From NCBI RefSeq assembly GCF_042660085.1, contig NZ_JBHSTI010000008.1, positions 1,749,876 to 1,781,875 on the forward strand: 32,000 nt of DNA. The letters run 5' to 3'. The notes under the pieces are model-generated. The model did not search any database and was not told the DNA's origin. It saw only the letters and a list, made by a program, of their open reading frames with translations. Of this stretch, positions 13,617 through 31,591 are shown piece after piece; position 1 is the first letter of the stretch; each line of letters starts with the position of its first letter. Position numbers and translations under genes: made by a program. Source of the DNA: Longivirga aurantiaca (GTDB lineage Bacteria > Actinomycetota > Actinomycetes > S36-B12 > CAIYMF01).

Positions 13617-14638
13617 GGGGTCGAACCTACCGGCGGGTCGCCGGGCTCGCTCTCAGCGAGGGCACCCTCACCTGCGGCGGGGACGTCGTCGGCGCCGTCG
13701 GCGTCGGCGGATTCGTCGTCGGCGGCAGCGTCGTCGGCGGGCTCGGCGTCGCGTCCGCGCAACGACGCAGGGTCCTCGCGGCCCGGTCGGAGCCGCGCGC
13801 TCAGGACGATGTAGAGGATCCCGCCGACGATCACCACCAGGGAGGTGAAGACGTTGAGGCGGATCCCGAAGAACTGGTTGGCATCGTCGATCCGCATCGT
13901 CTCGATGATGCCGCGGCCGACGGAGTAGAGCGTGATGTAGAGCGCGAACACCCGGCCGTGGCCCATGCGCCAGCGGCGGTCGGCCCACACGAGCACGATC
14001 GCGACGAGCACGCACCAGATCGACTCGTACAGGAAGGTCGGGTGGAAGGTGGCGTACTGCTCGTAGCCCTCGGGGCGGTTGACCGGATCGATCTGCAGGC
14101 CCCACGGCAGGTCGGTGGGCGCGCCGAAGAGCTCCTGGTTGAACCAGTTGCCCCAGCGTCCGATCGCCTGCGCCAGGACGATGCCCGGGGCGATGGCGTC
14201 GGCGAACGGCGGCAGCGGGATGCCCCTGCGGCGTACGCCGATCCACGCGCCGACGCCGCCGAGGATGACCGCGCCCCAGATGCCGAGGCCGCCGTCCCAG
14301 ATGCGGAACGCCGCGAGCAGGCCCTTGCCGTTCTCGCCGAAGTAGATCTGGTTGTCCGTGATCACGTGGTACAGCCGGCCGCCGACGATCCCGAAGGGCA
14401 CGGCCCAGATCGCGACGTCGGCCACGGTGCCGGGCAAGCCTCCGCGCTCGACCCAGCGCTTCCCGCCGTACCAGATCGCCACGACGATCCCGAGCAGGAT
14501 GATGAGCGCGTAGGCGCGGATCGGCAGCGGGCCGAGGTACCAGACGCCCTGGCTCGGGCTCGGGATGGATGCCAGGACGCCCGACGTCCCCGGCGCCGCA
14601 AGGGCGCCGGGGACGTGGAGGCCGAAGAAGGTCGTCAC
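13613..14638 (-). CDS. lgt: prolipoprotein diacylglyceryl transferase
   Basis: Conserved core inside track ORF 13613..15118(-): SIPSPSQGVWYLGPLPIRAYAL, GGRLYH, GLGIWGA, AIGRWGNWFNQELFG. GTG 14638 (GTGA overlap with the dsbA-like stop) is the only canonical in-frame start between that stop and the core. There is a long acidic Ala/Asp-rich C-terminal tail. The start is uncertain because a strong hairpin lies in the first 20 codons. Confidence 0.85.
   Translation of the reverse strand: MTTFFGLHVPGALAAPGTSGVLASIPSPSQGVWYLGPLPIRAYALIILLGIVVAIWYGGKRWVERGGLPGTVADVAIWAVPFGIVGGRLYHVITDNQIYFGENGKGLLAAFRIWDGGLGIWGAVILGGVGAWIGVRRRGIPLPPFADAIAPGIVLAQAIGRWGNWFNQELFGAPTDLPWGLQIDPVNRPEGYEQYATFHPTFLYESIWCVLVAIVLVWADRRWRMGHGRVFALYITLYSVGRGIIETMRIDDANQFFGIRLNVFTSLVVIVGGILYIVLSARLRPGREDPASLRGRDAEPADDAAADDESADADGADDVPAAGEGALAESEPGDPPVGSTP
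14584..14616 (-). other. 14-bp GC-rich stem-loop just after the dsbA-like stop, inside the annotated lgt 5' end
   Basis: Minus-strand RNA ACGUCCCCGGCGCC-CUUGC-GGCGCCGGGGACGU is a perfect 14-bp stem. It starts about 18 nt after the stop at 14635. No U tract follows. Confidence 0.45.
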
Positions 14639-24559: not shown

Positions 24560-24669
24560 TCTGCCGTGACACCGGCCCGGTGCAGTCCCGGGTTACGGCG
24601 GGTCGGCGTGGCAGGATCTGCATCGCGGTCGAGGGGCGGCCGTGACGGCCGGTGACGCAGGGGGATCCG

Positions 24670-25386
24670 ATGACCGACCAGCCGCGGGACCCGTTCGCGC
24701 CACCGGACTCTGCCGGTTCGTTCCGTCCGACCGGCTTCCCGCCGCCCGCGCCGCCGGTGCCGGCGTTCCCGCCGCCCACCGGCGCGCCGCTGCCCCCGCC
24801 TCCGTGGTCCGGCGACCCCTTCGGTGCGGCCGTCCCGCCGAAGCCGCGACGCAGGGGACGCGGCCTGATCATCGCCGGTGCGGTGGCGGCCGGCGTGCTC
24901 CTGCTCGGGGCAGCCGGCATCGGGGCCGTGCAGATGCTCGACGGCGCGCTCAGCTCGTCCCGGGCGGGGCTGTCGACCACGGGCACGGGCGGCGACGTCT
25001 GGATCAGCGACGTCGGCGCCGGGGACTGCTACGTGCTCGACGCCGAGGAGCGGCGCGAAGCGAGGGCGGGCTACGTGACCCTCGTCGACTGCACCGAGCC
25101 GCACGACGGCCAGGTGTACGCCGTCGTCCCGGTCGACTTCGACAGCTGGCCCGGCAAGCGCGAGGTCAACGACGCCGCCGAGAAGGGCTGCAGGGCGAAG
25201 GACGTGCTGCTCGACGACGCCATCTGGGACGCCACCGGGCTCGCGGGGAACTGGTACCTGCCGTTCGAGGAGGACTGGGACGTCGAGGACCACACCGCGC
25301 AGTGCGTGGTGGAGGCGGACGACGCGCTCGGCCTGCGCCGGTCGTGGCTCGCCAGCGACTCCGGCACCTCGACCGAGGCCGCCTGA
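24670..25386 (+). CDS. membrane-anchored secreted-domain protein, septum-formation-family-like
   Basis: Track ORF 24652..25386(+). ATG 24670 is preferred because AGGGGGA lies 5-6 nt upstream. Pro-rich N-terminus, one TM helix (LIIAGAVAAGVLLLGAAGIGAV) and an extracytoplasmic domain with four Cys, including GDCYVLD and LVDCTEPHDGQVYAVV. The family assignment is from a recalled pattern only. Confidence 0.55.
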   Translation: MTDQPRDPFAPPDSAGSFRPTGFPPPAPPVPAFPPPTGAPLPPPPWSGDPFGAAVPPKPRRRGRGLIIAGAVAAGVLLLGAAGIGAVQMLDGALSSSRAGLSTTGTGGDVWISDVGAGDCYVLDAEERREARAGYVTLVDCTEPHDGQVYAVVPVDFDSWPGKREVNDAAEKGCRAKDVLLDDAIWDATGLAGNWYLPFEEDWDVEDHTAQCVVEADDALGLRRSWLASDSGTSTEAA

Positions 25387-26181: not shown

Positions 26182-26337
26182 GGCGAGAACCCTCCCCGGG
26201 GCAGGAGGGACCTCCCACCCCACTATCGACCTCGGCAGGGGTGGACCTGCCCTTGAGCGCCGTACGGCTGACCGAGCGACCCCGACGTAGGCTGCGAGCA
26301 CGAGCCGCAGGGACGTGCGGCAGGTCTGGAGGACCCG

Positions 26338-26976
26338 GTGGCCAGCAACTCCGTCGCGCGTGCCGAGCGCGCCGCGCTCGCCGAGCTGATGACCGAGGTG
26401 GGCCCGGACGCGCCCACGCTGTGCGGCACCTGGACGACGCGCGACCTCGCTGCGCACCTGGTGCTGCGCGAGCGCCGCCCCGAGGCCCTGGGCCTCGTGA
26501 TCCCGGCGCTGCGCGGGCGGATGGAGTCGGTGCAGGACGGCATCGCGGCGCGGCCGTACGACGAGGTCGTGGCCGAGGTGCGGCAGGGTCCGCCCTTCTG
26601 GAACCCGATGGGGATCGGGCCGTTCGACGCCCAGGCCAACACCGTGGAGTTCTTCGTCCACCACGAGGACGTGCGCCGCGCCGCGACCGGGTGGACCCCG
26701 CGCGAGCTCGACGCGGCGACGACCGAAGCGCTCTGGAAGGTCGTCGGGACGACCCTGCGCGCGATCGCCCAGCGCTCGCCCGTCGGGATCGACGTCGCAC
26801 CCTCCGACGGCCCTGCTGCCGGCACGACGACGACGCTCAAGGGCGGCACGCCGTCGGTGACGCTGGTGGGGCCGGTCGGCGAGATCGTGCTCGCGGTCTA
26901 CGGCCGCGTGACGTCGCTCCTCGAGGTCGTGGGCGATCCGGCGGTGGCCGAGGCGTTCGCGTCGTTCCCGCGCTGA
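26338..26976 (+). CDS. TIGR03085-like / mycothiol-dependent (DinB-fold) maleylpyruvate-isomerase-family protein
   Basis: 212 aa, GTG start with GGAGGA upstream. The N-terminal ER..L..L....G..AP TLC..WT.RDLAAHL pattern and a later FFVHHEDVRRA are typical of this actinobacterial family. Confidence 0.7.
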   Translation: MASNSVARAERAALAELMTEVGPDAPTLCGTWTTRDLAAHLVLRERRPEALGLVIPALRGRMESVQDGIAARPYDEVVAEVRQGPPFWNPMGIGPFDAQANTVEFFVHHEDVRRAATGWTPRELDAATTEALWKVVGTTLRAIAQRSPVGIDVAPSDGPAAGTTTTLKGGTPSVTLVGPVGEIVLAVYGRVTSLLEVVGDPAVAEAFASFPR

Positions 26977-26983
26977 GGGACGG

Positions 26984-27754
26984 CTACCGGACCGGGTGCC
27001 CGGCCTCGCGCAGCGCCGCCTTGACCTCGCCGATCGTGAGGTCGCCGAAGTGGAAGACGCTGGCTGCGAGGACCGCGTCGGCACCGGCGTCGACGGCGGG
27101 TGCGAAGTGGGCGAGCCTGCCCGCGCCGCCGCTCGCGATCACCGGCACTGTCACGCGCGCACGGACGGCGCGCAGCAGCGGCAGGTCGTAGCCGTCCTTG
27201 GTGCCGTCGGCGTCCATCGAGTTGAGCAGGATCTCGCCGGCGCCGAGCTCGGCTGCCAGCACGGCCCAGCCGACGGCGTCGATCCCGGTGGATCGGCGTC
27301 CGCCGTGGGTCGTGACCTCCCAGCCCGACTCCGTCGTGACGCCCTCGGGGCAGCGCCGTGCGTCGACCGACAGCACGACGCACTGGGCGCCGAAGCGCTC
27401 GGCAGCCTCGCGCAGCAGCTCCGGCCGCGCGATCGCGGCGGTGTTGACGCCGACCTTGTCGGCACCGGCCCGCAGCAGGCGGTCGATGTCGTCGACCGTG
27501 CGGACGCCGCCACCGACGGTGAGGGGGATGAAGACCTGCTCGGCGGTGCGGCGGACGACGTCGTACGTCGTGGCGCGGTCGCCGCTGCTCGCGGTGATGT
27601 CGAGGAAGACCAGCTCGTCGGCTCCCTGGGCGTCGTACGCACGGGCGAGCTCGACCGGGTCGCCTGCGTCGCGGAGGTCGACGAAGTTCACACCCTTGAC
27701 GACGCGGCCTGCGTCGACGTCGAGGCACGGGATGACACGGACGGCGACCGACAC
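26984..27754 (-). CDS. hisF: imidazole glycerol phosphate synthase cyclase subunit
   Basis: Track ORF 26984..27793(-). The conserved N-terminus starts at GTG 27754 ([20 protein letters not shown]). Motifs LDITAS, TVGGGVR and ASGGAG are present. 256 aa. Confidence 0.95.
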
Positions 27755-27818
27755 GACGCACAGCCTAGGCGGGCGTGCTCGACGGGCCTTCATCGGTTCT
27801 CTGCCTTACCGTCGTCGG

Positions 27819-28229
27819 ATGACCGAGCACCCGGGCGGAGCGCAGTCCATCGAGGAGACGCAGCGGCTCGCGGCCAGCGCGTACCTGTCGTTGACGACGT
27901 ACCGGAAGGACGGCACCGCAGTGCCGACACCGGTGTGGGCGAGCACCGACGGCACCCGGCTCTACGTGTGGACCCAGGCCGACTCCGGCAAGGTGAAGCG
28001 GGTGCGCCACCGCGGCCACGTGCAGGTGGCGCCGTGCGACGCGCGCGGTTCGCTGCAGGGCGCCCCGGTCGACGCCAGCGCCCGGGTCGTCGACGCACCC
28101 GAGGAGCTCGCCAGGATCGAGGGACGGCACAGGGCGAAGTACGGCGTGCAGTTCACGCTGTTCCGCCTCGCCGGCAAGGTCTTCCGCCGCGGCCGCCCTT
28201 ACGCCGGCCTCGAGATCACCGTCGTCTGA
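27819..28229 (+). CDS. PPOX-class (pyridoxamine 5'-phosphate oxidase-like) probable F420-dependent enzyme
   Basis: 136 aa from ATG 27819 ([40 protein letters not shown]), in frame within track ORF 27198..28229(+). The LTTxRKDG...TPVW pattern is typical of the small PPOX/F420 family. Confidence 0.7.
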
Positions 28230-28248
28230 CCCTCGCCCCCCCACGTGT

Positions 28249-28316
28249 GCGATGGAGTCCGGGCCCCCGCCGGGCGACGATGGCCGAAGGCCTCGCCCGG
28301 TAGGGGGCTTCATCCG
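28249..28316 (-). repeat. structured intergenic repeat, copy A (short form, 68 nt)
   Basis: Sense (minus-strand) sequence: cggatgaagccccctaccgggcgaggccttcggccatcgtcgcccggcgggggcccggactccatcgc. It aligns to copies B and C but lacks their 31-nt side hairpin. It sits between the convergent PPOX and acyltransferase stops. Confidence 0.8.
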
Positions 28317-28363
28317 ATAGAGCCGAACGATCGAGGCATTCGTCGGGACGGCTGCCCTGAGGC

Positions 28364-29779
28364 TCAGGGTGCGGCCGGGGCGTCCGTACGGCGCTCTCCC
28401 CCGGCCCAGCGCAGCGCAGCGCCGGCGGCGAGCATGACCGCGATCGCCGCCGCGGCGTTGAGCGGCAGCCCGGTGTACTCGATCGTGCGGGTCGGGAACC
28501 CGCCGAGCCCCGTCGCGGAGATCACGAGCGTCGAGGCGCCGATGCCGAACGTCGCCACCGCCGCGACGACCGCGGCGGTCCGCGGCGAGGGACGCCGCCC
28601 GCGCAGCGGCGCGTCCCACCAGACCAGGGGGGCGTGCTCGAGCGGCCAGAGCAGGCGTACGACGGCCCACACGCCGACGCCGTACGCCGCGATGAACACG
28701 ACGCTGCCGAGCAGGTAGCCCCAGCCGTCCGGCACGGGGTAGCCGTCCGAACCGATCGTGACCGGCCGGTCGAGACCCAGTGCGTGCGCGGTCGTCGCCA
28801 CGGCGATGAGCACGGGCAGGTGCCAGAGGTACAGCGTCATCGCCACGAGGTTGACGCCGGTCACCGGGCGCCAGATGCGCGGCCGCTCGAGGAGGCGGCG
28901 CAACGGCGCATCCAGCAGCGTGACCAGCGCTGCCAGCACGACGGAGTGGATCGCGAGCACGATCGTGGGCGGCGCCATGTTGCTCACGGGCTCGCCCGGC
29001 ATGCCGACCATCGAGACGGGGTACGGGCCGAAGCGGATGAGCACGGCGTTCGCCGCGAAGCCGAGCGCCACGGCGGCGACCATGACCGGCCACGGGTAGG
29101 CGCCGAGGGTGCCGTGCGAGCGCAGCGCGCCGAGGTAGGCGGGGACGGCCCACGCGAGCACGAAGTTGAGCAGCGCCACCGCCTCGGGGAGGCCGAGGGC
29201 GAACCGCGCGAGGTCGACGAGCGCGACGAGGCCGAGCAGGAGCAGGAGCCCCAGCACTCCCCCGACGAGGCTCGTACGGCGGAACAGCGGCGCGAGCGCC
29301 GTCACCAGCAGGTAGGCGCCGAGGAACCACAGCAGCTGCGTGGTCAGCATCATGAGCGGCTCGGCAGTCTCGGCCGGCGCGAGCAGGGTGACCACCGTCG
29401 CGATCACGGCCATGAGCGCGAGGTAGATCCAGGCCGGCCTCAGAAGCCGTCGTCCGCGCCCCCACAGCCAGCTCGCGTAGTCGCCGCCGCGCGCGTGGTG
29501 CCGCTCGTACGACAGGGCATTGGCCGCGCCGCCTGCGAAGAAGAACAGCGGCATGATCTGCAGGAGCCAGGTGAGCGCCTGCGTCCAGGGGTACGCCGCG
29601 AGCACGTTGCCCAGCACCGGTACGCCGCCCGGCCAGACCACGACGGCCATGACCACGTGACCGGCCACGACGACCAGCAGCGCCGCCGCGCGGGCGCCGT
29701 CCACGACACGGTCGCGGTCAGGGGGCGTCTCGGCCGCAGCCCGCGCCGTCGGCACCGCCGCGAACACCCGCACGCTCAC
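28364..29779 (-). CDS. acyltransferase family 3 integral membrane protein
   Basis: Track ORF 28364..29881(-). The extreme N-terminus of that ORF lies in repeat copy B. Start is taken at GTG 29779 (SVRVFAAVPT), with an alternative GTG at 29773. About 10 TM helices and the N-terminal ...VDGARAAALLVVVAGH... motif are typical of acyltransferase_3. Confidence 0.75.
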   Translation of the reverse strand: MSVRVFAAVPTARAAAETPPDRDRVVDGARAAALLVVVAGHVVMAVVVWPGGVPVLGNVLAAYPWTQALTWLLQIMPLFFFAGGAANALSYERHHARGGDYASWLWGRGRRLLRPAWIYLALMAVIATVVTLLAPAETAEPLMMLTTQLLWFLGAYLLVTALAPLFRRTSLVGGVLGLLLLLGLVALVDLARFALGLPEAVALLNFVLAWAVPAYLGALRSHGTLGAYPWPVMVAAVALGFAANAVLIRFGPYPVSMVGMPGEPVSNMAPPTIVLAIHSVVLAALVTLLDAPLRRLLERPRIWRPVTGVNLVAMTLYLWHLPVLIAVATTAHALGLDRPVTIGSDGYPVPDGWGYLLGSVVFIAAYGVGVWAVVRLLWPLEHAPLVWWDAPLRGRRPSPRTAAVVAAVATFGIGASTLVISATGLGGFPTRTIEYTGLPLNAAAAIAVMLAAGAALRWAGGERRTDAPAAP

Positions 29780-29802
29780 GCCCTCAGCGTGGCACGGGGT
29801 TT

Positions 29803-29900
29803 GCGATGAAGGAATGGGCCCCGCCAGGCGACACTGGGCGAAGCCCTCGCCCGGTAGGGGACTTCGTTGCTCAGAGCGCAACGAAGTCGGCCTTCATCCG
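29803..29900 (-). repeat. structured intergenic repeat, copy B (long form, 98 nt)
   Basis: Sense (minus-strand) sequence: cggatgaaggccgacttcgttgcgctctgagcaacgaagtcccctaccgggcgagggcttcgcccagtgtcgcctggcggggcccattccttcatcgc. It lies between the dienelactone-hydrolase stop (29917) and the acyltransferase start (29779). Confidence 0.85.
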
Positions 29901-29916
29901 CGAGCGTCGAGACGGC

Positions 29917-30651
29917 TCAGGTGGCGTGGCGGTCGGTGAAGTCGAGGATGCGGGTCCACGCGTCGGCGCAGGCCTCGGCGTGGTCGGCGAAGCTGCGGTC
30001 GAAGAAGGAGTGCGGCGCACCGTCGTACACGTGCCGCTCAGCGTCGACGCCGCGGGCGGTGAGCCCCGCGATGAGGTCGTCGAAGCTCTCGGGCGCGATG
30101 CTCTGGTCTGCGCCCGCGAGCAGCATGAGGATCGGCGCCCGCACCTGGTCGGCCACGGGGTCGACGGTGTCGACGCTGCCGTAGAAGCCGATCGCGCCGT
30201 CGAGGCCGGGCTGGTCGGCCGCCTGGCGGTAGGAGTTGCGGCCGCCGAAGCAGAAGCCGACGGTGAACACCGACTCGGCACCGTCGGCGCGGAGCTTGTC
30301 GATGCACGCGGCGACGTCGGCCGCGATGCCGGGCTGGGTGGTCTGCGGGATGTGCGTCTGCCAGTCGAAGCCCTCGGCGCGGTCGTCGGAGTCCGCCGTA
30401 CGGCCGAACCAGTCGAAGGCGACGGCGTGGAAGCCGGCCTCGGCGAACCGCTCGGCGAGGTGCTTGTAGTAGTGGTGCAGGCCGCGGATGTCGGGGAGGA
30501 TCACGATCCCCTTCGTCGACGGCGCGGCCGGGTGCGCCTCGTACGCCAGGAAGCTGTTGCCGTCGGCGGCGGTGAGGCGCAGGTCGCCGTGGGCGCCGAC
30601 CTCCCCCTGGCGCGGCGGTGCGGGCGGGCGGGACTCGTCGCTGTGGCACAT
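29917..30651 (-). CDS. dienelactone hydrolase family protein
   Basis: Track ORF 29917..30678(-). ATG 30651 is preferred, with an alternative GTG at 30678. Alpha/beta-hydrolase pattern GIVILPDIRGLHHYYKHLAERFAEAGFHAVAFDWF, the nucleophile-elbow region VGFCFGG, and a C-terminal Y.GA.HSFF. Confidence 0.8.
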   Translation of the reverse strand: MCHSDESRPPAPPRQGEVGAHGDLRLTAADGNSFLAYEAHPAAPSTKGIVILPDIRGLHHYYKHLAERFAEAGFHAVAFDWFGRTADSDDRAEGFDWQTHIPQTTQPGIAADVAACIDKLRADGAESVFTVGFCFGGRNSYRQAADQPGLDGAIGFYGSVDTVDPVADQVRAPILMLLAGADQSIAPESFDDLIAGLTARGVDAERHVYDGAPHSFFDRSFADHAEACADAWTRILDFTDRHAT

Positions 30652-30703
30652 GGCTCGGACCCTACGTCGGCTGGGCACACCCTGGACCGAGGAACCGCGC
30701 GAT

Positions 30704-30800
30704 CAGTGAAGGCCGGATGTGTTGCGCTCTGAGCAACGAAGTCCCTACCGGGCGAGGGCTTCGTCCAGTGTCGCCCGGCGGGGGCCCGTTCCTTCATCGC
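30704..30800 (+). repeat. structured intergenic repeat, copy C (long form, 97 nt, inverted relative to A and B)
   Basis: Plus-strand sequence: cagtgaaggccggatgtgttgcgctctgagcaacgaagtccctaccgggcgagggcttcgtccagtgtcgcccggcgggggcccgttccttcatcgc. By eye it is about nine-tenths identical to the reverse complement of copy B. It lies between the priA stop (30812) and the hydrolase start. Confidence 0.85.
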
Positions 30801-30811
30801 GACCGATCGGG

Positions 30812-31591
30812 TTAGGGCATGACGCCGGGGATGCCGCCGTCGAGGCGGAACTCGCTGCGCTCGATGCGCGGCGAGACCGCGGCGAGGGCCTCGGGGAGCG
30901 TGAAGGCGCCGGCGTACAGCGCCTTGCCGACGATCGCGCCCTCGACGCCGATGCCGACGAGCTCGGCGATCGCGTGCAGGTCGGCCAGCGACGAGACGCC
31001 GCCGGAGGCCACGACCGGCTTGTCGGTGCGCTCGCACACCTCGCGCAGCAGGTCGAGGTTGGGGCCGGTGAGCGTGCCGTCCTTGCGGACGTCGGTCACC
31101 ACGTAGCGAGCGCACCCCTCGGAGTCCAGGCGTGCCAGCACCTCCCAGAGGTCGCCGCCGTCCTCCGTCCAGCCTCGCGCGGCGAGGGTCGTGCCGCGTA
31201 CGTCGAGACCCACGGCGACGCGGTCGCCGTGCTCCGCGATCGCACGTGCGCACCACTCGGGGTTCTCGAGCGCCGCGGTGCCGATGTTGACACGCGTGCA
31301 CCCGGTGGCGAGCGCGGCGCGCAGCGACTCGTCGTCGCGGATGCCGCCGCTCATCTCGACCTTGATGTCCATGCGGCCGACCACCTCGGCGAGCAGCGCG
31401 GCGTTCGAGCCGCGGCCGAAGGCGGCGTCGAGGTCGACGAGGTGGATCCACTCGGCGCCCTGCTCCTGCCACGCGAGCGCGGCCTCGAGCGGATCGCCGT
31501 ACGACGTCTCGCTGCCGGCCTCCCCCTGCACGAGACGGACGGCCTGACCGTCGGCGACGTCGACTGCGGGGAGGAGCTCGAGGTAGGTCAT
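30812..31591 (-). CDS. priA: bifunctional HisA/TrpF-type phosphoribosyl isomerase (PriA)
   Basis: 259 aa. [38 protein letters not shown] and [11 protein letters not shown] motifs. It ends in a rare TAA stop 11 nt from repeat copy C, after an extension of about 18 aa beyond the usual ...LPEALAAV end. Confidence 0.9.

Follow-up and report, generated by a model that had tools for sequence, protein, structure and literature searches.

What kind of element places three closely similar, hairpin-forming sequences in three successive intergenic gaps between priA and hisF of the actinobacterium Longivirga aurantiaca? We addressed this question in a 32,000-nucleotide stretch of its genome (hereafter the window; contig NZ_JBHSTI010000008.1, positions 1,749,876 to 1,781,875), for which a first-pass annotation had proposed a structured repeat under strand-specific constraint. 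The three copies, here called A, B and C, proved to belong to a family that is dispersed and modular, turns over at the same locus, is homogenised between neighbouring copies, lies close to stop codons in either orientation and is targeted by insertion sequences. We consider it probable that these are small non-coding modular palindromic interspersed repeats, a BOX/BIME-like mosaic family of a high-GC Actinomycetes lineage, and the family is best read as selfish mosaic repeat DNA rather than as a dedicated strand-specific regulatory RNA.

Three full-length copies lie between priA and hisF

Each of the three intergenic gaps between priA and hisF holds one copy, at the places and on the strands originally reported, and the 20-nt core CCTACCGGGCGAGGNCTTCG, with up to three mismatches allowed, has exactly 3 matches in the 32-kb window, compared with 0.06 in shuffled sequence. 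Copy A (28245..28344, minus strand; 105.7 bits with the covariance model described below) sits between the convergent stop codons of an acyltransferase gene and a PPOX-family gene. It had been described as a 68-nt copy; it is instead full-length, at about 100 nt, with a diverged 5′ half, in which a decayed outer 5′ arm (28337-28344) and a type-2 5′ module, ATCGTTCGGCTCTATCGGATGAAG (28308-28331), are followed by the nested hairpin unit (28262-28306), the 3′ arm CTCCATC (28251-28257) and the tail GCACAC (28245-28250). Copy B (29799..29904, minus strand; 116.4 bits) is a long form with a type-1 5′ module and consists of the outer arm GATGAAGG (29891-29898), a 5′ hairpin (29862-29886), the nested hairpin unit (29819-29860), the 3′ arm CCTTCATC (29805-29812) and the tail GCAAAC (29799-29804). 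It lies in sense orientation, 9-18 nt downstream of the stop codon of a dienelactone hydrolase (DLH) family gene, the distance varying with the chosen start of the element. Copy C (30700..30804, plus strand; 98.7 bits), likewise a long form with a type-1 5′ module, comprises the outer arm GTGAAGG (30706-30712), a 5′ hairpin (about 30719-30741), the nested hairpin unit (30743-30784), the 3′ arm CCTTCATC (30791-30798) and the tail GCGACC (30799-30804). It is antisense to priA-to-DLH transcription, and 7 nt separate the end of its tail from the priA stop codon.

The similarities estimated by eye in the first-pass annotation were borne out by alignment: copies B and C are identical in 88 of 99 columns (88.9%), with three 1-nt gap columns, and copy A is 77.9% and 81.2% identical to B and C, respectively, over the 68-nt core. 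All of the quoted pair variants were also recovered, namely the third pair of the apical stem P4, which is C-G in A, G-C in B and G-U in C, the G-U pair in P3 of B, and the outer pair of P1, which is A-U in B and G-U in C. None of the copies codes for protein, as had been argued from their indels, which are present; the reading frames with high GC content at third codon positions (GC3) are those of the flanking genes. Copies B and C share the derived loop sequence CAGTGTCGCC (29819-29860 and 30743-30784), and every other copy carries CATCGTCGCC or a close variant of it. B and C lie inverted, about 800 bp apart, around the DLH gene, and this private sequence points to gene conversion or local copying between them.

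Copies are assembled from a basal element and nested hairpin units

Comparison of the copies delineated a basal element of about 57 nt, GATGAAkGCCGGrATTGTTCGGCTCTATTGGATGAAGG-TCG-CCTTCATCGCAAAC, in which the inner GGATGAAGG pairs with CCTTCATC, followed by the tail GCAAAC. This element alone constitutes a short form, found at L013:1170-1238, L024:1057-1125 and L041:10782-10850, and also in L048 and L049 (L-numbers label the compared loci; all relatives are metagenome-assembled genomes (MAGs) or metagenome contigs). In the long form, to which the window copies belong, one added hairpin unit is nested in the loop of the basal hairpin. The nested unit, about 45 nt in length, reads (T)CCCCTAC-CGGGCGA-GGsCTTCGsCC-ATCG-TCGCCCG-GCGGGGGCCCA, and thus follows the scheme CCCCTAC, stem-loop-stem, GCGGGGGCC, with an 8-bp stem, CCGGGCGA/TCGCCCGG, a CCCC/GGGG clamp and a TA bulge. 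The loop and bulge bases are near-invariant across species, and at least three alternative stems occur. A double form in L025, L031, L038 and L049 has a unit a in sense orientation, then a unit b in antisense; the second unit has identical clamps, another stem (CTGGCG...CGCCAG) and the reversed orientation. The third stem variant (CTGCGCATC...GATGCGCAG) stands alone in L038. Altogether, 21 of 22 units are located inside a basal hairpin.

The 5′ module occurs in two versions. In type-2 modules (copy A, L005, L011, L013 and L024), the inner arm GGATGAAG is kept and the outer arm is decaying. In type-1 modules (copies B and C and most metagenome copies), the inner arm is altered to GCAACGAAG, which forms a hairpin of its own with a TTGTTGC upstream of it, and the outer arm GATGAAGG has been retained.

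Smaller pieces also occur beside full copies. They comprise minimal hairpins (ATGAAGG-CGA-CCTTCAT) and duplicated tails (CCTTCATCGCAAAC, then CCTTCATCGCACAC), at L013:2589-2607, L048:3830-3848, L034:181-199 and L037:5360-5387; the smallest unit to be reiterated thus measures only about 20-25 nt.

At the locus with the stand-alone unit, the final 12 nt of a tRNA-Ala gene (CCTAGCCTCCAC) are found again some 150 nt downstream (L038:874-1103(-)), directly after that unit, which could be a small integration scar or chance. The clamp of the unit, AGTCCCCTA, matches a stretch of the tRNA-Ala T-arm and acceptor over 9 nt; a link between the clamp GTCCCCTA and the T-arm was considered and set aside, as only these 9 nt are common. 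A permuted tmRNA called by ARAGORN across the tRNA-Ala gene and the repeats (L038:533-1124(-)) is very probably spurious, with the hairpins having misled the program.

The family is dispersed among uncultured relatives and lies at gene ends

Scanning one genome per GTDB species with the core pattern yielded 16 loci. Of these, 6 are true full-length homologues and belong to four MAG species, of which two carry the label 'Candidatus Nanopelagicales', one 'Actinomycetota' and one 'Actinomycetes'; the remaining ten are chance matches within genes. The same pattern detected about 14 further copies in 13 of 24 matching contigs from JGI metagenomes, the majority in a small number of related samples. 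When about 0.25 Mb of sequence was searched with a covariance model of 14 full copies, 23 matches at 51-128 bits were returned, plus weaker short and degenerate copies. In all, about 25 copies besides those of the window adjoin unrelated housekeeping genes in the four MAG species and the metagenome contigs. The copies have a composition of 65-70% GC, and their neighbours are ordinary genes, among them those for a ClpC-like ATPase, PAC2, an S51 peptidase, OsmC, pirin, an epimerase, a class A penicillin-binding protein and a Rieske oxygenase. No transposase adjoined any copy among the neighbours examined, although no search aimed at RAYT was made.

The family is not catalogued in Rfam: the window region gave no hit at the gathering threshold and nothing above chance level at E<=10, in agreement with the initial failure to recognise it, and five variant-bearing loci likewise gave nothing above chance level at E<=1. 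Scans of viral contigs with the core and with the short-form hairpin, a BLASTN search of copy B against plasmids and phages, and a full-text literature search with six diagnostic 13-14-mers on both strands were all without a match. General literature searches on REP or MITE elements of actinobacteria brought up no relevant description, and a sigma-70 promoter scan found nothing. The proposal of a previously unrecognised structured repeat thus stands insofar as the family is real, non-coding, hairpin-forming and absent from Rfam; its other part, a conserved cis-acting RNA under strand-specific constraint, is not supported, for the reasons given below.

To place the copies relative to genes, we relied on a crude GC3-based caller of open reading frames (ORFs), which left the L007 locus without clear assignment. 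Wherever neighbours were called, the copy faces the 3′ end of one gene or more, often 2-50 nt away, and no copy was found in a clearly divergent gap by this caller. In unidirectional gaps, copies are in sense orientation at two distinct loci and antisense at four; within the window, copies B and C take opposite orientations along the same priA-DLH-acyltransferase direction. Such a distribution, which REPs share (PMC3733652), would also be expected if the copies were hairpins selected by the host at 3′ ends, acting as factor-independent or bidirectional terminators or as barriers to 3′ exonucleases that stabilise the upstream mRNA, as has been demonstrated for some REPs; the family would then persist because of that function. 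The position of copy A exactly between two convergent genes and the very stable predicted folds of both strands fit this explanation. However, neither strand carries the U-tract signature of a terminator (0 sites with a hairpin and U-tract at 27800-31000, both strands), close relatives lack the repeat at the same junctions, and hairpin function leaves the near-invariance of loop and bulge bases across species unexplained. We regard host-selected 3′-end hairpins as an unlikely explanation, albeit one that partially overlaps with the selfish reading in the form of exaptation.

Copies and modules turn over at orthologous loci

The locus of copy B, from the DLH stop to the acyltransferase start, differs among relatives. 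The window carries a long type-1 copy, whereas L024 (89% DNA identity over 2.3 kb) carries a long type-2 copy and L041 (priA 98% identical in amino acids) a short form to which half a unit and another tail are appended. In L042-44 (priA 96% identical), a deletion extends from within the DLH gene to the loop of the unit: at L042-L044:10835-11240, DLH breaks off after about 85 codons and runs on into the 3′ half of repeat B, and the gene call over this fusion is a single 596-aa 'acyltransferase'. The repeat is therefore a deletion end-point, the deletion having possibly proceeded via a CGAGGGCTTCG-like stretch common to DLH and the repeat. In L045/46 (priA 89% identical), the DLH-acyltransferase gap measures 9 nt and holds no repeat. 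The locus of copy C is similarly variable, with a long copy in the window, short copies in L024 and L041, a remnant in L042, and a short gap without a repeat in L045/46, where a conserved spacer of about 20 nt separates the priA stop from the DLH ATG.

The number of nested units varies next to a gene of the MFS family (90-93% amino acid identity among the compared loci). At one site upstream of this gene, nested units number zero in L048, one in L013 and two in L049, the latter two being of different stem types and in opposite orientation; downstream, a short form is present in L013, a long type-1 copy and a short form stand in tandem in L049, and L048 has nothing. Conversely, copies at unrelated loci can be nearly identical, as in L027, L032, L035 and L037. 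The nested unit of the window is identical to that of L007 at 44 of 45 positions, although the DNA of the L007 acyltransferase gene is only 67-68% identical, and copies in general are 86-98% identical across genomes with coding DNA only about 67% identical. At the B and C loci, comparison of filled and empty sites in diverged relatives further showed that the insert comes with additional sequence from outside the family.

Pairing is preserved in part and without evident strand preference

A single nested rod does not describe copies B and C, in which the outer stem P1 encloses both the 5′ hairpin (CUUCGUUGC/GCAACGAAG) and the long hairpin. The stem-loops of the window are predicted to be very stable (-44 to -57 kcal/mol); copy B folds at -57.1 kcal/mol, with z = -5.4 for the sense and -4.7 for the antisense strand, so that the two strands are predicted to fold about equally well. 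A C(UUCG)G tetraloop, also considered for the CUUCG loop, was rejected as out of register, the loop being either a UUC triloop or a CUUCG pentaloop.

The earlier argument for selection on one strand was that the non-canonical pairs are G·U rather than the A·C mismatches of the complementary strand. Across 24 aligned copies, 64 cells hold G·U or U·G and 14 hold A·C or C·A, G·U being mostly an inherited state of subfamilies. Counted by paired position, G·U variants occur at 12 and A·C variants at 8, and single substitutions in the main hairpin of well-preserved copies comprise 2 G·U (copies B and C) and 2 C·A (L008 and L016). With 12 versus 8 positions and 2 versus 2 single changes, small as these numbers are, no bias of G·U over A·C between the strands emerges, and by the refuting criterion that the first-pass annotation itself had set, the claim of a strand-specific constraint on RNA or ssDNA is not supported.

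The related claim that substitutions keep the pairing survives in part. One compensatory change is found in P4, from G-C to C-G (4/23), and the 5′ hairpin exists in two compensated types. On the other hand, P2 and P3 together show 0 compensatory changes over 14 pairs, and P1 is paired in 80% of cells in the 24 copies, mostly decaying. That the 3′ arm CCTTCATC keeps one partner in type-1 and type-2 copies alike is, judging from the alignment, the clearest apparent sign of structural constraint.

These observations bear directly on the original reading of the repeat as a dedicated structured RNA, either cis-regulatory or a small RNA, under strand-specific structural selection. The P4 and 5′ hairpin changes are what such selection would leave, the non-Watson-Crick pairs in P2-P4 of the three window copies are G·U, and the covariation score exceeded those of all 500 shuffles, although the tool itself warns that related sequences can reach such a score without structure. 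Against it, copies occur in both orientations, with B sense and C antisense within one presumed transcript, and orthologous copies are not conserved, as whole modules differ or the copy is missing. Moreover, P2 and P3 lack a compensatory pair, C·A is as frequent as G·U among single changes in well-preserved copies, P1 decays instead of being compensated, and Rfam offers no match. A dedicated RNA thus appears distinctly improbable.

IS30-family elements interrupt two copies

Insertion sequences of the IS30 family lie inside two copies, at different internal positions (L030:4765-5120(-) and L034:1-100(+)). The C-terminus of the L030 transposase scored 92 bits against NF033563, and the two elements share the terminus ACCGCTTGAAWCCGCC, which is unrelated to the ends of the repeat. 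For the L030 locus, L027 represents an intact allele. This suggests that the palindromic repeat is a preferred IS30 target. That the repeat had not been recognised as an IS end also fits, as the only nearby insertion sequence interrupts copies rather than bounding them.

The priA-hisF gap varies in gene content among relatives

The gene order of the insert was established with the labels of the two flanking genes exchanged relative to the first-pass annotation: 30812..31591 on the minus strand is priA, named after the source annotations and encoding the bifunctional HisA/TrpF isomerase, and 26984..27754 on the minus strand is hisF (His_biosynth; 256 aa, as in the relative L041). The repeats remain between the two. 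From priA, the DLH family gene (29917..30653, minus strand) is flanked by copies B and C in inverted orientation and is the gene truncated in L042-44; it is followed by a gene for an acyltransferase_3 family membrane protein (28364..29779, minus strand), whose GTG start (29777-29779) was set via alignment with relatives, and by the PNPOx/PPOX-family gene (27819..28229, plus strand; 136 aa). The closest relative, MAG GCA_038316965.1, has a priA product that is 98% identical.

This arrangement invites the explanation that the repeats serve as attC-like or dif-module-like recombination sites, by way of which DLH, acyltransferase and PPOX entered the space between priA and hisF as cassettes. There is one copy in each of the three gaps of the insert and none elsewhere in the 32 kb, DLH stands between inverted copies, and the gene content between priA and hisF varies through a cupin gene, two genes for methyl-accepting chemotaxis proteins (MCPs) and the loss of DLH. 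Nevertheless, L045/46 hold DLH and acyltransferase in the same order with no repeats, most other copies flank core genes without signs of a cassette, their orientation is mixed, no integrase or recombinase gene is nearby, and the R''/R' core sequences of attC are not visible. The cassette reading is rejected because relatives carry the same genes without repeats, and these loci largely refute attC-like or dif-like sites; we consider them very improbable.

The gap itself (window 26984-31591) is a variable spot in this lineage, as seen among the window, L041, L042, L045, L046 and L047. The window has DLH, acyltransferase and PPOX; L041 has an extra cupin gene, L045/46 have two additional GAF-MCP chemoreceptor-like genes, and L047 contains quite different genes, including a RidA-like gene and one for a 1298-aa Kelch/beta-propeller protein. 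The 9-mer CCTTCATCG, equal to the 3′ arm of the repeat, occurs at 27788-27796 on the plus strand, in the gap from which hisF and PPOX diverge, and has no partner arm close by; as about 0.24 chance occurrences are expected in the window, it is unlikely to be a remnant.

Outside the gap, two high-GC3 ORFs without a Pfam match lie between trpE/hisI and hisF (24646-25386 and 26272-26976, plus strand), and L041-L046 have genes without Pfam hits at matching positions, the correspondence being by position alone. At 13669-13754, 15-nt periodic repeats of the CGTCGTCGGCG type form four successive units, apparently within a coding region, and presumably encode, on the minus strand, a short peptide repeat that is acidic or rich in alanine.

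Discussion

We propose that the family spreads and is homogenised as selfish DNA. Spread may proceed by copy-and-paste, with an enzyme acting in trans and recognising the near-invariant hairpin unit, and/or by gene conversion, for which the basal arms shared between copies would provide homology. Our probability attaches to the general class of element; any particular enzyme is far less likely. As a side effect for the host, a very stable stem-loop is placed just after priA, DLH and acyltransferase, and this could halt or stabilise transcripts whichever way it is oriented.

Several points weigh against this view. No mobilising enzyme was found adjoining the copies, nor an autonomous element with the same ends. 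No direct repeat indicative of a target-site duplication is visible at the junctions, the only empty sites being in relatives too diverged for exact junctions to be placed. The copy number looks low, with only 3 exact-core matches in the closest species-representative MAG and the window copies all within the 2.6-kb priA-hisF insert and none outside it; the copies beyond the window were all counted in MAGs or metagenome contigs. The high conservation across species could instead reflect a host function, as a protein-binding site or a functional RNA.

A more specific variant, to which we assign a small share of probability, is that the nested unit (CCCCTAC-stem-GCGGGGGCC) is an actively mobilised ssDNA element with a dedicated enzyme specific to the lineage. 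The loop of a second repeat, the GATGAAGG/CCTTCATC hairpin, would be the landing pad of the unit and its specific site of insertion. This variant would account for the presence of 0, 1 or 2 units per locus, for the location of 21 of 22 units inside the basal hairpin, and for 98% conservation of the unit between genomes with genes about 67% identical. If correct, it would amount to a two-tier 'repeat within a repeat' system in Actinomycetota; to our knowledge, REP/RAYT-type systems are essentially undescribed in this phylum.

Small interspersed palindromic repeats have been well studied in Proteobacteria and streptococci and barely described in high-GC actinobacteria; a survey of tagged REPs and a review of prokaryotic MITEs (transposable elements of the miniature inverted-repeat kind) mention no actinobacterial example. 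The sequence signature and covariance model provided here can be used to annotate the repeats in MAGs of uncultured Actinomycetes, where they otherwise give rise to false ORFs and to gene calls that are too long, the 596-aa 'acyltransferase' of L042-44 being one example. The repeats also accompany rapid local change in a core operon, including gene truncation, module exchange and insertion-sequence targeting. The family opens no long-standing question and would become more interesting only with a dedicated hairpin-specific enzyme or a host function.

Comparison with known systems

Integron attC sites have R''/R' core sites (RYYYAAC / GTTRRRY), a uniform orientation and an adjacent intI. The present copies end in GATGAAGG and CATCGCAAAC, are of mixed orientation and have no integrase among their neighbours. 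The palindrome-associated elements derived from IS200/IS605 (PATEs) rely on imperfect sub-terminal hairpins recognised as ssDNA, which would fit the invariant bulge and loop bases observed here; in contrast, the present family has no linked TnpA or TnpB gene, no conserved tetranucleotide target visible at its 5′ junctions and no evident strand asymmetry of the kind expected for PATEs.

MITEs such as Correia/NEMIS and RUP resemble the family in being intergenic, non-coding elements of about 100 nt with a stable stem-loop, in their presence/absence polymorphism between relatives, and in a terminal inverted repeat of 8-9 bp, here CGATGAAGG / CCTTCATCG, i.e. (C)GATGAAGG ... CCTTCATC(G). They differ in that no target-site duplication and no parent insertion sequence with the same ends were detected here, and in that a conserved asymmetric tail (GCAAAC) lies outside the inverted repeat.

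The REP/BIME/REPIN systems, mobilised by RAYT transposases of the Y1 HUH type, are close to the family in unit design and distribution, their palindromic units measuring 20-40 nt. Their copy number is usually above 100 per genome, whereas that of the present family appears low, at 3 exact-core matches in the closest MAG and 3 in the window. REPs show G-T pairs, alternative complementary stems and a location after coding regions (PMC3733652), and are defined by a conserved GTAG tetranucleotide 5′ of the hairpin foot (PMC3479197). The present unit is likewise a short, imperfect, GC-rich palindrome with a conserved flanking motif, alternative complementary stems and occasional G-T pairs; it forms mosaic clusters of two unit types in opposite orientation (L025, L031, L038 and L049), lies after coding regions in unidirectional and convergent gaps, and is an insertion-sequence target, all as in REPs (PMC3733652, PMC3479197). 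However, GTAG is absent 5′ of the foot, where the sense strand has CCCCTAC, and occurs only on the opposite strand, 3′ of the stem (TCGCCCG-GTAG-GGGAC). Furthermore, the units are nested in a second repeat (21/22) and not free-standing.

BOX elements of pneumococcus and Streptococcus suis have no evident sequence relationship to the family, judged by eye and base composition alone, and homology is very unlikely because of the composition (BOX is AT-rich; the family here is 65-70% GC) and the actinobacterial host. In addition, middle units alternate here and are tandem in BOX, and no target-site duplication was seen here. Nevertheless, both are small modular non-coding repeats in which the end modules pair and the middle folds alone. 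In BOX, the number of boxB modules varies within A-Bn-C, copies cluster and insert into one another, and the mobilising agent is uncertain (PMC3049150); here, too, the number of middle modules at one locus varies between relatives, from 0 to 2, copies are clustered and nested, and the agent is uncertain. BOX, with its A-Bn-C plan and variable middle module, is thus the closest known system in architecture.

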